Made by a program: the position numbers and the translations under genes. The notes under the pieces are model-generated. The model was not told where the DNA came from. It did not search any database and saw only the letters and a list, made by a program, of their open reading frames with translations. This document shows positions 325 through 55,852 of a stretch of DNA of 64,000 nucleotides, in pieces. The stretch comes from Pristiophorus japonicus. Lineage: Eukaryota. Position 1 is the first letter of the stretch. Every line of letters starts with the position of its first letter. The stretch spans positions 310,001-374,000 of the forward strand of contig NW_027254368.1 in NCBI RefSeq assembly GCF_044704955.1, read 5' to 3'.

Positions 325-680
325 AGACTACAGGAGCTCAGTGCGCAGGCGCTGGCCCTGGCTGGGTTTGGAGCATGTGTGATGCATGTAATGGCGGAGA
401 AGACACGTTTCGGACAAGCGGCTCAGAGTTGTGTTTTTCAGCGGGACGGAGCGGAGTAATGGACCAGCGGGGAGCCGGGGCGACTTCATAAATAACCGCT
501 GCCCGCCGCAAACCCGGAATAAGAACCGGAATATCGCCGGTTGCAGTTTCGGGGCTTTCTCCCGTTCACAGGCCCAGGCTAACGGCGGCCATGTTTGTGC
601 AGGAAAGCAGGTTCAGCGCTCCGTCATCTTGGTTTAGTGAGTAGCAAGGCGCATGCGCGGCCATCTTGGTGCAGGAACAA
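325..680 (+). promoter_or_regulatory. CpG-rich promoter/first exon of ZNF cassette 1
   Basis: CpG-dense; NRF1-type GCGCATGCGC at ~649 and YY1-type GCCATCTT at ~660; homologous to 53920-54290 and (reverse complement) 32050-32380. Confidence 0.7.
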
Positions 681-694
681 AGTGAGTGATGTCA

Positions 695-1052
695 ATGTCT
701 GGAACTGAACCCAACCAGAATCAGCACCTTCAAGGAAGGGGAACCAGTGAGTGCAGAACTGAACCTAATCAGAGTCAGCACCCTCAGGAGAGGAGAGATC
801 AAAGAACGAGTGAGTGCAGAACCGAACACAGGGGAGGAGAGGGGAGCCAGTGAGTGTGGAACTGACCCCAGTCAGAATCACCACACTCAGGGGAGAGGAA
901 CCAGTGAATGTAGAACTGAATTCAGCCAGAGTCTACTTCTTTTGGAGAAGGAAGTGTACCAGTGAGTGTAGACCTGAACCCAGCCAGTATCTGTACATTC
1001 TGGGGAGGAGGGGGATGGGAAACCAGTGAGTGTAGACCTAAACCCAGCCTGA
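695..1052 (+). repeat. Diverged ~55-bp tandem repeat (GAACCAGTGAGTGTAGAACTGAACCCAGCCAGAGTCAGCACC...), about 6-7 units
   Basis: Visible repeated units; the same repeat follows the ZNF promoter at 54310-54510. Confidence 0.8.
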
Positions 1053-1263
1053 ATTGGTGGTGAAAACTATGTGTGGAGGAGAAACTGTCCAGAAATGTGC
1101 GATGGTTTAGATTTCAGCACAGCAGGAGGGACAATGTGTGGGACAGGGATTTACAGCTTTGGAAGAACGAGAGAGGAAAAAATGTTCCATGGAAACTAGA
1201 TGTGGCTATTCTGAATTTCTGTCTTGTACTGACAGTGATGAGTTTTGTTATCTCGTTTTACAG

Positions 1264-2130
1264 CGTATTAGGAGGTGAGATTTTCAGACAGGAAGCACAA
1301 ACCAAACATCGCATCAAGATCTGACAGGGGCAGTTGATTCATCAGGAGCTGAATATCGTTGGCCTTTGAAAGTGGAAGGAGAAATGTTTGTCTGTTCTGT
1401 CTGTGGGAAAAGATTTCAATTATCATCCTGACTGGAAAGGTACCAAGACACACACATCCAAGTGAGTATTCCAGTGCACTGACTGTGGAAAGAGCTCTAA
1501 CCAGTTACACAGCCTGAAAAAACATCGCACCATTCAAAGCGCAGAGAAACTGTAAATGTGTTGTGTGAGTGGGCGAGGCTTCAACTGATTGTCCAACCAT
1601 GGATAGTCACAAGGATACCTGCACCACGGAGAAACCGTGGAAATGCGATGACTGTGAGAAGCTATTCAGATCACCATCTGAGCTGGAAATGCATCGACGC
1701 TGTCACACTGGGGAGAGGCCGTTCACCTGCTCTGAGTGTGGGAAGGGATTCACTGCATCATCCGACCTGCTGAAACACCAACGTGTTCACACTGGGGAGA
1801 GACCGTTCACCTGCTCTCAGTGTGGGAAGCGATTCACTGAGCAATCCAACCTACTGAAACACCAGCGAGTTCACACTGGGGAGAGGCCGTTCGCCTGCTC
1901 AGTGTGGGAAAGGATTCACTCAGTCATCCACCCTGCTGAGACACCAGCGAGTTCACACTGGGGAGAGGCCGTTCACCTGCTCTGAATGTGGGAACGGATT
2001 CACTCAATCATCCACACTGCTGACACACCAGCGAGTTCACACTGGGGAGAGGCCGTTCACCTGCTCAGTGTGTGGGAAGGGATTCACCCAGTCATCCACC
2101 CTGCTGAGACACCAGCGACTCCACAAGTGA
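1264..2130 (+). pseudogene. C2H2 zinc-finger gene copy 1 (six main fingers; frameshift in finger 4)
   Basis: Acceptor TTTTACAG at ~1263; CxxC...HxxxH fingers with TGERPF linkers; 2-nt loss near 1900 shifts frame; family stop AAGTGA at 2128-2130; family start codon ACCATGG is changed to ACCACGG at ~1625. Confidence 0.85.
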
Positions 2131-2202
2131 CTACAGGGGTGGGATTCTGCTGTTATTGCTGCTTTTCATCACATCCCGACTGAACCATGTTCGTGTATCA
2201 TT

Positions 2203-2404
2203 AAGTTGTTGAGGCCAATTCACTAAATATATTCAAAAAGGAGTTAGATGTAGTCCTTACTACTAGGGGGATCAAGGGGTATGGCGAGCAAGCAAGAATG
2301 GGGTACTGAAGTTGCATATTCAGCCATGAACTCATTGAATGGCAGTGCAGGCTAGAAGGGCCGAATGGCCTACTCCTGCACCTATTTTCTATGTTTCTAT
2401 GTTT
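2203..2404 (+). mobile_element. CR1 LINE 3' end inserted in the ZNF1 3' UTR
   Basis: End of ORF2, 3' UTR hairpin (GAAGGGCCGAATGGCCTACTCC) and (TTCTATGT)n tail; the ZNF UTR resumes on both sides. Confidence 0.9.
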
Positions 2405-2839
2405 CATTCTGACATTTGGGGTTTATTTCTGCCGATGTTAATAACCCTATAACTGGGCTGGACTTTAATATTCTGGATATATTGCTGATTGTGTTCTTGG
2501 GGCTGCAGTGTCTACTTAAGAAATGCTGTGTGTTAGCTTTCCCCTTAATTCAGCAACTCTCAACAGAAATTTAGTTTGCAATTAAATTATGAACTTTTAC
2601 TTTAATTCTAAATTGATCTTTGGTACAAAATCTACAATTGTGTCAAAGTTTCCACTGAATAACATCACCAATTAAAAAGAGCTTGCTGACAATTCTTACT
2701 GACTTGCACATTACACACAGAGGCCCCTCCATTATCCACCAGAAAGAAGGGGAATGGGAATTGGTGGGGAATCAGTGTCCCTAAATGTTGCCCCTCCCGT
2801 CTGGTGTAGCAATCCCCTTGGCACGGGAATAGAGACAAG

Positions 2840-53055: not shown

Positions 53056-53559
53056 GGGCTGGGCCTTCCCTGCGAGCGTTGTGTGGACAGTTCCCACATG
53101 TATCCCACCTTCCCCTCCACCAGTACCTGCGTTGCTGTCTTGTTGGGCTGGGGGCAGGGGTTGGGGTCACGGTGACACGAACGGGCAAACCGTTTGACGA
53201 GGGGTCAGGGGTGGTGACCTTCCTGCCGGGCGAAGGCAGGAGTGGGACGCGACCTCCGGTTCCTCCTGTAGCCCGCGGCCTCGATATGTCCCACTTTTTA
53301 ATGTTCTGAAACGCCAGCAATAGAAAGATCCCGCAATCAGAGCGCGCCCTCAGCTCCATTTACCCGCCCTCCCGTAACATTGCACAGAAACCGGCCATTC
53401 GGCCCAACCGGTCCCTGCTAATTGCAGCCTTCTGCCCTTAACCCAGCACAGCCCAGGGGTGAATGTGTGAGGCCTCCCCAGGTCGGTCAGCTCCATGCTA
53501 TACTGGGCAGCAGGGGGGGCGGGGGAACTGAAGGGGGTGGTATTAACAACAAGGGGCTG

Positions 53560-54290
53560 TTGCATTTCGGTCATCAAACTGTGGCCCCGCCCACCACCAG
53601 CGGGACCCACAGAACCGCCTCTCTCCCGCTCGCGGTCCCCGGGGCCTTCGCTCCGACCTGGTCCGCGCGGCCCAGACTCGCCGTCGCTCTTGGCAAATCC
53701 ACTTCCGGCTGCCCTTATGTGTTTCCCCTGGCAACTGGGGAGAGAACTTTAAAAACAGCGATTAATTCATGAAAGGTTCGCAGCAGTCGGTTTATTTTTA
53801 TGATATGATTCTCCGCTTTATCATTTCATTATAAAACAAACAAATGCCAGGTTGTTTTTTATATTTTAAAAATCGCGCACTGGGGCCCTTCCGCCGCATT
53901 TCTGTGACATCACAACGTCATTGCCCTGGGGGAGCCCAGTGCGCAGGCGTGGGCTGTATGTGGAGCATGCGCAGTGTGTCATTGTTCAGAGCGGACGCGG
54001 GCTGTGAGTGGGCGGAGGCCGGGCACACAGTTTGGAATTCAACGTGAATCTGCGGGGCGCAGGGGAGTAACATACTCGACAGGTGGGCTTCATAAACACC
54101 TGGTGCAGGTCGTTAACCCGGACTAAGGCACAACAGGTCTCGAGTTTGCAACTCCCGGGCGTTTTCGCGGTAACAGGCCCAGGCTGACGGTCGCCATCTT
54201 TGTAAAGCATACCTAGAGGTAAGTGCGCCACCAATGTGCTTCATCGAGCAGTAGAGCGCATGCGTGGCGATCTTTGCGATAGAACAATGT
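53560..54290 (+). promoter_or_regulatory. CpG island and promoter/first exon of ZNF cassette 3
   Basis: GC boxes, ETS CACTTCCGG at ~53700, GCATGCGCA, CGCCATCTT at ~54192; homologous to 325-680. Confidence 0.75.
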
Positions 54291-54309
54291 GTGGGCAGGG
54301 CTTCAGGGT

Positions 54310-54510
54310 CCCAGTGAACTCAGCCAGAGTCAGTACATTCAGGGGAGGAGAACCAGTGAGTGTAGAACTGAACCCAGCCAGAGTCAGCACCTTCAGGAGA
54401 GGAGAGTGAGGGGAACCAGTGAGTGAAGAACTGAACCCAGCCAGAGTCAGCACCTCCAGGAGATGAGTGGGAGGAAACCAGTGAGTGTAGAACTGAACCC
54501 AGCCAGATTT
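54310..54510 (+). repeat. ~55-60-bp ZNF-associated tandem repeat, about 4 units
   Basis: Same unit as 695-1052. Confidence 0.85.
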
Positions 54511-54982
54511 CAGGACAGGGATTTTTGTGATGGGGATTTACAGCTTTGGAGGAACGAGAGAGGAAAGAATGCTTCATAGAATCAGTACTTGCAGTAATGA
54601 TTTTTGTAAACTCCTTTTGCAGGGTATGAGAACGGGTAGATTTGCAGATGGAAAAATTAAAACAAACATCACATCAAGATCTGACAGTCACTCGATTCAA
54701 CAGGCCCTAAATATCATCGGCTTTTGAATGTGGAAGGAGAAATGTTTGTCTGTTCTGTCTGTGGGATCAGATTCCAAACATCAGTGTGACTGGAAAAGCA
54801 CCGAGACGCACACGCCCGAGTGAGAGTGTTCCAGTGCACTGCCTGTGGAAAGAGCTTTAACCAGTTACACAGCCTGAAAACCATTGCACCATTCACAGTG
54901 GGGAGAAACCGTACACGTGTTTGTGTGTGGACGAGGCTTCAACTGATTGTTCAACCTGGAGAGACACAAGGACACCCGCACC

Positions 54983-55441
54983 ATGGAGAATCCGTGGAAA
55001 TGTGGGGACTGTGGGAAGGGATTCAATTATCCATCTGAGCTGGAAATTCATCGCCGCAGTCACACCGGGGAGCGACCGTTCATCTGCTCCATGTGTGGGA
55101 GGGGATTCACTCAGTCATCCAGCTTGGTGAGACACCAGCGAGTTCACACTGGGGAGAGGCCGTTCACCTGCTCTGAGTGTGGGAAGAGATTCACTCAGTC
55201 ATCCACCCTGTTGAAACACCAGTGTGTTCACAATAGGGAGCACCTGTTCACCTGCTCCGTGTGTGGTAAGGGATTCACTACCGTATCCGACCTGCTGAGA
55301 CACCAGCGAGTTCACACTGGGGAGAGGCCATTCACCTGCTCTGAGTGTGGGAAGCGATTCACTCAGTCATCCCACCTGCTGCTACACCAGCGAGTTCAAA
55401 AGTTACTGCTGGGTTTGGATTCTGCTGTTACCCCAGACTGA
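54983..55441 (+). CDS. C2H2 zinc-finger protein (152 aa; four canonical fingers plus a fifth ending HQRVQ)
   Basis: Kozak [40 protein letters not shown]...; uninterrupted; family stop TGA changed to TTA gives a short C-terminal extension. Confidence 0.75.
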
Positions 55442-55852
55442 ATCATTCTGACAGTTTCTTTCTGCTGATATTGATTCCCCCTGTAACTGGGCTGGAGTTT
55501 AATATTTTGGATATTGGACCAATTAATCAATGGGAAAAGGGTCAGATAAAAATAATGTTGATTGTGTTTGCATCCATACTTCACTGTTTAAAGGCATTTC
55601 TTCAAATACTGAAAGCTGCAACAAATTGAGCTAAACTTTGTTGAACCATTTATAAAACCATTGAATCTGCAGGTTGGTTTTCGATTTCTCTGGGATGGAG
55701 CTGGACATGATGTGCATTGAAATACTGCCGGTGTCCAGTGAATGACGCTGTCCCTCCAATTAACTCCGACTGAGGAGTGCATGACTGCCTCCTAGAGCAG
55801 GAGGAATGTGGGCAGCTCAGGGTCAGACATTGCACATACTGTCCCCTCTCGG

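Follow-up and report, generated by a model that had tools for sequence, protein, structure and literature searches.

Copies of a finger-only C2H2 zinc-finger gene family in a 64-kb stretch of the Pristiophorus japonicus genome

The window analyzed here is a stretch of 64,000 nucleotides from Pristiophorus japonicus (contig NW_027254368.1, positions 310,001 to 374,000). It very probably holds seven copies, three near-complete and four partial, of a C2H2 zinc-finger gene that encodes only fingers and belongs to a large shark-and-ray family spreading by segmental duplication; members still intact at other places in the genome are predicted to bind DNA and have diversifying contact residues. Comparing the window with itself by BLAST recovered all seven pieces, on both strands, that a preliminary description of this DNA had listed as one recurring unit: three near-full copies (b, e and g), mutually 77-78% identical across about 1.1 kb, and four fragments (a, c, d and f; Table 1). 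A regular-expression (regex) scan found 16 complete C2H2 fingers, every one inside b, e or g. The fingers follow the pattern C-x2-C-x12-H-x3-H and are joined by TGE(K/R)P linkers; Pfam zf-C2H2 matched five stretches of 54983-55438 (E = 2.6e-36). The start position, M-x-K-P-W, lies in the linker just before the first finger of the open reading frame (ORF), hereafter called the lead finger.

The best protein matches of the window are from sharks and rays. Eight RefSeq models from five shark species begin M-x-K-P-W-K-C, namely those of Scyliorhinus canicula (P0027), Mustelus asterias (P0109, P0139), Heterodontus francisci (P0121, P0123, P0127), P. japonicus itself (P0137) and Chiloscyllium punctatum (P0144). 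A lead finger marked by the same W was found 30 times in cartilaginous-fish models, including those of the skates Rhinoraja and Amblyraja, and the first 40 residues encoded in the window are 74-87% identical to their cartilaginous-fish relatives. The earlier proposal of a cartilaginous-fish family is well founded on these matches.

The complete gene would be built as follows. A CpG-rich promoter with YY1- and NRF1-type motifs would drive a short non-coding exon 1. Next would come an intron of roughly 0.3-0.6 kb, in which a 54-64-bp repeat bearing a donor-like GTGAGT is present in 0-10 copies. Exon 2 would begin with about 350 nt of dead leader serving as 5' untranslated region (UTR), and translation would run from M-E-K-P-W-K-C through 3-13 fingers.

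Intact relatives and damaged copies

The genome assembly comprises 5.9 Gb in 4,318 contigs. Four unit DNA queries returned 3,605, 4,496, 4,904 and 1,715 first-look candidates, figures that are not copy numbers. Only 40 candidates per query were scored, and all showed 89-100% identity. These scored copies lie on many unplaced contigs and on C9 (above all at 200-228 Mb), C2, C3, C11, C20 and C25. We fetched 60 loci, the best matches to the window units (89-100%), of which 55 matched the lead-finger regex and were scored. Among the resulting 58 units (three from the window and 55 fetched), an ORF running from an M to the usual end, with 3-13 fingers, survives in 38, and 20 are broken. Together with the damage to all three window copies, these figures agree with the rapid turnover by birth and death that had been suggested for the family.

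To measure selection, variants were counted against the cluster majority in eight clusters of close paralogs, comprising 25 intact ORFs, and the ratio of nonsynonymous to synonymous variation (pN/pS) was calculated. Non-contact positions carried 135 nonsynonymous and 112 synonymous variants, a pN/pS of 0.37 (binomial p = 4e-14). At the contact positions of the later fingers (-1, +2, +3 and +6) there were 68 nonsynonymous and 11 synonymous variants, giving a pN/pS of 1.81 (one-sided p = 0.038). The difference between these contacts and the framework (1.81 vs 0.42) was significant (Fisher p = 6.6e-6), and the helices of the later fingers do vary, as had been noted from the window. The direction is clear and points to the intact family members being coding genes with fast-changing DNA-contact residues. 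Their proteins would likely bind DNA in a sequence-specific manner.

The copies in the window are in a different state. Unit b is frameshifted after its third finger, and unit e after its fourth, with an additional CGA-to-TGA change; the usual stop of unit e follows HQRLHK. Unit g has the sole uninterrupted ORF among the window copies, with the lead finger and three further intact fingers, while its fifth finger is without the last His (HQRVQ). The usual stop of unit g is also lost, so that 13 extra residues are read from the 3'UTR. Such stop losses were seen in 10 of the 38 intact ORFs, g included, with read-through of 13-18 residues into the 3'UTR (..LQGLDSAVIVAVNHIPD); they include loci L041-L043, L045, L048, L055, L058 and L059, and in the window the new stop is at 55439-55441. 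A matching 3'UTR-derived peptide occurs in the Mustelus model P0100, which indicates conservation of the first part of the 3'UTR between shark orders.

Upstream of the fingers, the ratio of observed to expected CpG (o/e) was 0.94 in b, 0.85 in g and 0.58 in e, against 0.43 window-wide. GCCATnTT, which we take to be a YY1-type motif, is present in all three units. GCGCnTGCGC, presumably of NRF1 type, occurs in b and g and was not found in the promoter-like segment of e. Over the 58 units, GCCATCTT in forward orientation was found in 30 and GCGCATGCGC in nine, where shuffled sequences led us to expect 0.5 and 0.0, respectively. Mean upstream CpG o/e was only 0.38-0.50 across the same units. The CpG promoter with YY1 and NRF1 motifs that had been assigned to the unit therefore suits b and g, but not the family average.

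The repeat of about 55 bp, earlier called optional, is indeed so: it is present in b and g, a motif scan found zero copies of it in e, and the 58 units carry 0-10 copies with modal spacings of 54, 58 and 63-64. Every copy bears one CAGTGAGTG, a strong donor-like site. In unit b, where the first GTGAGT donor-like site is at about 683, Tandem Repeats Finder (TRF) reported no array (600-1150), and the repeat is visible only through the spacing of its motifs. The acceptor TTTT(A/G)CAG is common to b, e and g, reading TTTTACAG in the first two and TTTTGCAG in g, and from its conservation we infer the intron and exon structure.

The strongest competitor to our reading is that the cassettes in the window are debris only, i.e. 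pseudogenes carried along by segmental duplication, with no working protein made from this stretch. The frameshifts within the arrays of b and e, the missing zinc ligand and stop of g, the decayed promoter of e and the fragmentary state of four of the seven pieces all favor it. However, the 152-aa ORF of g is still open, encodes four intact fingers and has an ACCATGG start behind a CpG-rich upstream segment, and the occurrence of stop-loss extensions among intact ORFs means that its extension need not be lethal. Unit b likewise retains the highest CpG o/e and has copies 97-100% identical elsewhere. We judge debris to be a serious prospect for the window, falling slightly short of an even chance. 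It concerns the window only, and the family as a whole is under selection. The window alone holds only damaged copies of the family.

Predicted targets and the search for an effector

In the intact members, the rapid change of contact residues likely follows targets that themselves change fast, such as transposons. The genomes of cartilaginous fishes are large and rich in retroelements, and have no KRAB zinc-finger (KRAB-ZNF) genes. That the family targets transposable elements (TEs) is, however, a tentative proposal, somewhat less likely than not, that we put forward by analogy with other systems. A competing possibility, which we regard as rather unlikely, is that the working proteins regulate host genes or chromatin domains, the variable contacts reflecting relaxed or divergent regulatory use. 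It is favored by the fact that many finger-only ZNF proteins of other vertebrates regulate genes, and that no finger array studied here was tied to a TE sequence. On the other side, TE-targeting KRAB-ZNF and FiNZ-ZNF genes are reported to show the pattern seen here, in which contact pN/pS exceeds 1 and young copies number in the thousands within TE-rich clusters (PMC10547256); the argument is one of analogy. If finger-only genes are the TE-recognition arm of cartilaginous fishes, the question becomes how a zinc-finger protein devoid of an effector represses.

The absence of a visible effector domain, already remarked on in the preliminary description, was borne out by the Pfam searches. None of the 111 same-strand upstream ORFs of at least 35 aa (5 kb ahead of e and g, 1.6 kb ahead of b) matched KRAB, SCAN (PF02023) or BTB (PF00651) at E <= 0.1, the sole matches being weak C2H2 relics. 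The genome-wide search, which covered KRAB (PF01352), gave two matches, both on another contig (C20). Among 29 longer proteins that share the lead finger, no cartilaginous-fish protein with KRAB was found, and only those of a frog and a caecilian carry it. The ORF ends directly after the last finger (HQRVHK and stop), and thus has no C-terminal domain either.

The sequence ahead of the fingers has a consistent anatomy. After the acceptor come a pre-finger stretch of about 35 codons (..DLTES.DS..YH.PLNVEGE), three relic fingers (F1, F2 and F3) and then the lead finger. Relic F1 reads FVCSVCGKRF..V(stop)L.KH, and relic F2 of unit e (31550-31488) is still a regex-complete finger, with a Pfam zf-C2H2 match on 31452-31595. 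With three relic fingers upstream, the finger earlier described as a stereotyped finger 1 is the fourth of an older array; its motif is real but its rank was not.

This leader is dead in all 85 unique units examined. At the F1 stop, 84 units have TGA and one has TAA; the second F3 stop is TGA in 82, and 50 units have a frameshift relative to unit e. An ATG at the F1 position, present in 45 of the 85 units, would open an upstream ORF of 15 codons. A neighboring CGA codon is kept as CGA in 69 units and has become TGA in six, so recurrent CpG decay cannot explain the fixed stops of the leader, which the ancestor shared by the sampled subfamilies already carried. The ORF opens with the ATG of an ACCATGG inside the old F3-F4 linker. 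An ATG occupies this lead-finger position in 57 of the 85 units (e and g included), and the full ACCATGG in 48; b-type units have another ACCATGG eleven codons upstream, made by a 1-bp insertion. Because fixed stops lie ahead of the ORF, that exon does not encode any sort of N-terminal domain. In fragment d, the pre-finger leader runs straight into an F3-type finger, without F1 and F2. This is the layout of the basking-shark (Cetorhinus) models P0043 and P0066, so an older subfamily with another leader coexists in the genome.

We also considered the dead leader as the best-conserved part of the unit and rejected the idea, as the identities of 0.87-0.96 behind it came from a sample chosen with a leader query. 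In a sample chosen by the intron end, leader and relics showed 0.907-0.951 identity against 0.960 for the intron. The leader being no better conserved than the intron there, the apparent excess is a selection bias. As a separate observation, relic F2 (31482-31565 on the minus strand, about 1455-1540 and about 54813-54895 on the plus strand) is 0.89-0.94 identical among b, e and g, compared with 0.76-0.82 for intron end plus leader and 0.68-0.77 for the 3'UTR (Fisher p = 0.002-0.03), though it sits behind a fixed stop. No such excess was found in the sample chosen by intron end.

An effector could still be supplied by an upstream exon, perhaps distant or of an undescribed kind, spliced to the finger exon. 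Models with N-terminal extensions of no known family lend this some support, that of S. torazame (P0141) being acidic and about 220 aa long and those of two skates (P0135 and P0148) sharing a region of about 100 aa. Yet in 82 of the 85 units a fixed TGA precedes the ATG by 13 codons, within one exon and one reading frame. An upstream coding exon would need to be spliced into the roughly 39 purine-rich bases between this TGA and the ATG, which appears unlikely, as these bases seem to offer no pyrimidine tract. The RefSeq models that start at the lead finger and the lack of any effector in the upstream ORFs further count against it, and we consider a hidden effector quite improbable.

The lead finger

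The form W-K/E-C-x2-C-G-K-x-F-x2-P-S-x-L-E-x-H-R-R-x-H was found in all three full window copies and in 55 of the 60 fetched loci. In the 38 intact ORFs, its entropy was near zero at the W, the Cys and His ligands, D, K and F. It was low at P (+1, 0.5), S (+2, 0.2), L (+4, 0) and E (+5, 0.2) and at the first two residues between the His (0.5 and 0.2), and higher at -1 (1.7), +3 (1.3) and +6 (2.0). Mean contact entropy was 1.29 in this finger vs 1.84-2.05 in fingers 2-7. The stereotypy of the lead finger is mainly at non-contact positions, while -1, +3 and +6 vary. Among recent paralogs, the density of nonsynonymous changes was 0.032 in the lead finger vs 0.050 in later fingers (p = 0.10), and all five changes at its contact positions were nonsynonymous. 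The suggestion that this finger is more constrained than the others accordingly has a mixed outcome: the extra constraint is not significant in young copies, but its non-contact residues have clearly been kept from sharks to skates.

In the usual geometry of the C2H2 helix, positions +1, +5, +8 and +9 are off the DNA-reading face. The conserved non-DNA surface of the lead finger would be compatible with an interaction module. A simpler contributor to the stereotypy is terminal position, since fingers at the ends of an array are spared the unequal exchanges by which inner ones are shuffled. The last finger of the intact ORFs is likewise fairly stereotyped. The dead three-finger leader implies that the conserved lead finger formerly stood inside an array.

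Going further, the lead finger may itself be the effector. Its off-DNA face, formed by the W ahead of the first Cys, the helix residues P (+1), S (+2) and E (+5) and the RRS that separates the two His, would recruit a corepressor through which finger-only proteins would silence transposons in cartilaginous fish. We find this speculation improbable. If true, finger-only silencing would be an ancient solution to a task for which tetrapods use KRAB and carps FiNZ.

Spread, surroundings and known systems

In 20 loci of 9 kb, close copies align with positions 1-6000 of the window at 94-98%, and farther copies with 274-2192 and 2403-4617 at 82-89%, fragments of long interspersed nuclear elements (LINEs) included. 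As the homology runs past the gene, the units travel within larger duplicons, a pattern expected from segmental duplication rather than from a discrete mobile cassette. That the cassette is instead the cargo of a mobile element, spread by transposition and not by duplication of host DNA, is very improbable: the thousands of first-look candidates over many contigs and the LINE fragments inside and beside units would suit it, but homology between copies continues for kilobases past the gene, without a shared end in these 20 loci and with unrelated LINE pieces included, the unit retains promoter and intron and is thus not a retrocopy, and the copies are clustered.

Several points weigh against our interpretation of the window as part of a large, finger-only and selected family. 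There is no clean full copy in the window, with b and e frameshifted and g short of its last His and stop. An unselected 200-kb slice of C9 held only three units, indicating that unit density is uneven, and the fetched loci stand for three young subfamilies and not for the family at large. The pN/pS count is crude, covers intact ORFs only and ignores gene conversion. No GT..AG joint was found in unitigs (about 84-300 nt) from four RNA runs of this highly repeated family. Finally, given the extensions of the S. torazame and skate models (P0141, P0135 and P0148), which resemble no known family, the effector-less state may not hold for every member.

Coordinates of the units and of the other features are collected in Table 1. 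Fragment a abuts the promoter of unit b and matches the 3'UTRs of other copies (42-139 with 30130-30225, and 42-235 with 5686-5514). The 3'UTR of unit e is broken by an insertion of about 490 bp resembling 59190-59538 and 60515-60761. The 200-bp LINE tail inside the 3'UTR of unit b is 93-95.5% identical to 14622-14821, 23489-23697 and 17765-17568, and the likeness of such tails indicates that the element was recently active.

Table 1. Features of the window, with positions counted from its first nucleotide
Feature	Position	Strand	Basis or detail
Unit b	325-2480	+	near-full copy, self-BLAST
Unit b promoter-like CpG-rich segment	325-683	+	CpG o/e; GCCATnTT at 588 and 660, GCGCnTGCGC at 649
Unit b repeat, seven diverged 54-65-bp copies	681-1060	+	GTGAGT/GTGAAT donor-like motifs at 681, 746, 809, 849, 903, 961, 1025 (spacing 40-65 bp); internal self-BLAST matches
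Unit b intron 3' end	1097-1263	+	conservation; splice site inferred; acceptor 1256-1263
Unit b leader and relic F1-F3	1264-1598	+	predicted 5'UTR; stops and frameshifts
Unit b ORF	1599-1985	+	ORF, regex; ACCATGG start (MDSHKDT..); lead finger 1644-1706 and two fingers
Unit b, two more fingers in other frame	1978-2130	+	translation; usual stop after HQRLHK, TGA 2128-2130
Unit b 3'UTR, interrupted	2131-2202 and 2403-2480	+	2403-2480 matches 3'UTRs of e, c and g
LINE-tail insertion in unit b 3'UTR	2203-2402	+	self-BLAST
Unit e	32385-30130	-	near-full copy, self-BLAST
Unit e decayed promoter-like segment	32000-32385	-	CpG o/e; GCCATnTT at 32095; no 54-bp repeats
Unit e intron 3' end	31756-31932	-	conservation; acceptor 31763-31756
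Unit e leader and relic F1-F3	31401-31755	-	translation; three TGA stops
Unit e ORF region	30854-31400	-	ORF, regex; ATG 31400-31398 (ACCATGG); lead finger 31382-31320
Unit e 3'UTR region	30130-30853	-	3'UTR parts 30853-30715 and 30225-30130
Unit g	53920-55520	+	near-full copy, self-BLAST
Unit g promoter-like CpG-rich segment	53920-54310	+	CpG o/e; GCCATnTT at 54193, GCGCnTGCGC at 54256
Unit g 63-bp tandem repeat, 3.2 copies	54315-54507	+	TRF; CAGTGAGTG in each copy
Unit g intron 3' end	54526-54622	+	conservation; acceptor 54615-54622
Unit g leader and relic F1-F3	54623-54982	+	translation; stops and frameshifts
Unit g ORF, 152 aa	54983-55441	+	ORF, Pfam
Unit g 3'UTR	55442-55520	+	self-BLAST
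Fragment a, distal 3'UTR	40-240	-	self-BLAST
Fragment c, last finger (..FTCSECEMGFTTSSDLLRQQRVHK, stop) and unbroken 3'UTR	5322-5686	+	self-BLAST, regex scan
Fragment d, intron end, leader, F3-type finger, damaged lead-finger start	6115-6600	-	self-BLAST
Fragment f, intron 3' end only	48485-48672	+	48493-48671 vs 31828-31660, 74% identity
LINE ORF2, longest, 882-aa open frame	17659-20307	-	Pfam
H2A genes	9121-9651; 15559-16002	-	Pfam
H2B gene	16931-17242	-	Pfam
Second H2B	near 10.4-10.8 kb	-	seen only as matching antisense ORF
H4 gene	20869-21189	-	Pfam
Histone 3' stem-loops (RF00032), four	9035-9080; 10333-10378; 15489-15533; 16850-16895	-
Tandem array, 24-bp unit, 19 copies, 96% matches	4790-5248		TRF
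Tandem array, 33-bp unit, 16 copies, 95%	46879-47410		TRF
Tandem array, 31/62/93-bp unit over 1.9 kb	50031-51942		TRF

The units lie among LINE reverse-transcriptase and endonuclease ORFs and replication-dependent histone genes. The Pfam matches to LINE ORF pieces around the units corroborate the TE-rich setting that had been described. Besides the longest frame, ORF2 pieces (RVT_1, Exo_endo_phos) were seen at 2970-3840, 11586-14124, 24263-24895, 28252-28899, 40045-41732 and 56617-57399. The histone genes form a group on the minus strand between zinc-finger units (9035-21189). Histone and zinc-finger genes are also neighbors on human 6p22. No tRNA was found in the window.

What the window adds is the anatomy of the dead leader, the selection signature in intact relatives and the conservation of the lead finger off its contact positions. 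No paper describing the anatomy of this shark family came up in full-text searches, which covered one library of the literature and part of the supplement of Wells 2023. That study gives 475-3,586 zinc-finger ORFs for eight cartilaginous fishes in its supplement and lists shark chromosomes in its notebooks, with a catshark as example species, while the main text, as far as its available part goes, is without mention of sharks or cartilaginous fish (PMC10547256).

The closest counterparts are finger-only zinc-finger models of sharks and rays in RefSeq, which share the W-marked lead finger and the start position with the window units. They are named 'zinc finger protein 239-like', 'gastrula zinc finger protein XlCGF8.2DB-like', 'ZNF850-like' or 'uncharacterized protein'. 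Some read a 3'UTR-derived tail (LQGLDS..AAVNHI), as do the stop-loss ORFs of the window family. Others differ in that part of the leader, dead in the window family, is translated (Cetorhinus P0043 and P0066, Heterodontus P0072): P0066 and P0072 read the pre-finger stretch as coding, and P0043 has an intact F3, unlike the 85 units analyzed here.

The KRAB zinc-finger proteins (KZFPs) of tetrapods and lobe-finned fish resemble the family in their TE-rich clusters, single large finger exon, birth and death, and change at contact residues. In mouse and human, KZFP clusters mix intact genes, pseudogenes and fragments in duplicated blocks, as here. They differ in having a KRAB A-box upstream, whereas none of the 111 upstream ORFs encodes one here and the protein begins with a finger. 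The whale-shark genome paper reports the loss of KRAB families in cartilaginous fishes (PMC8455134), and a single PRDM9 gene was reported in the whale shark Rhincodon (PMC11603059). The FiNZ-ZNF genes of cyprinids are described as an expansion within one fish lineage, with hundreds to thousands of genes in clusters that evolve adaptively, and in this they resemble the present family. They differ in that FiNZ is a 28-aa N-terminal domain on its own exon, whereas the sequence ahead of the fingers is non-coding in the units described here (PMC10547256).

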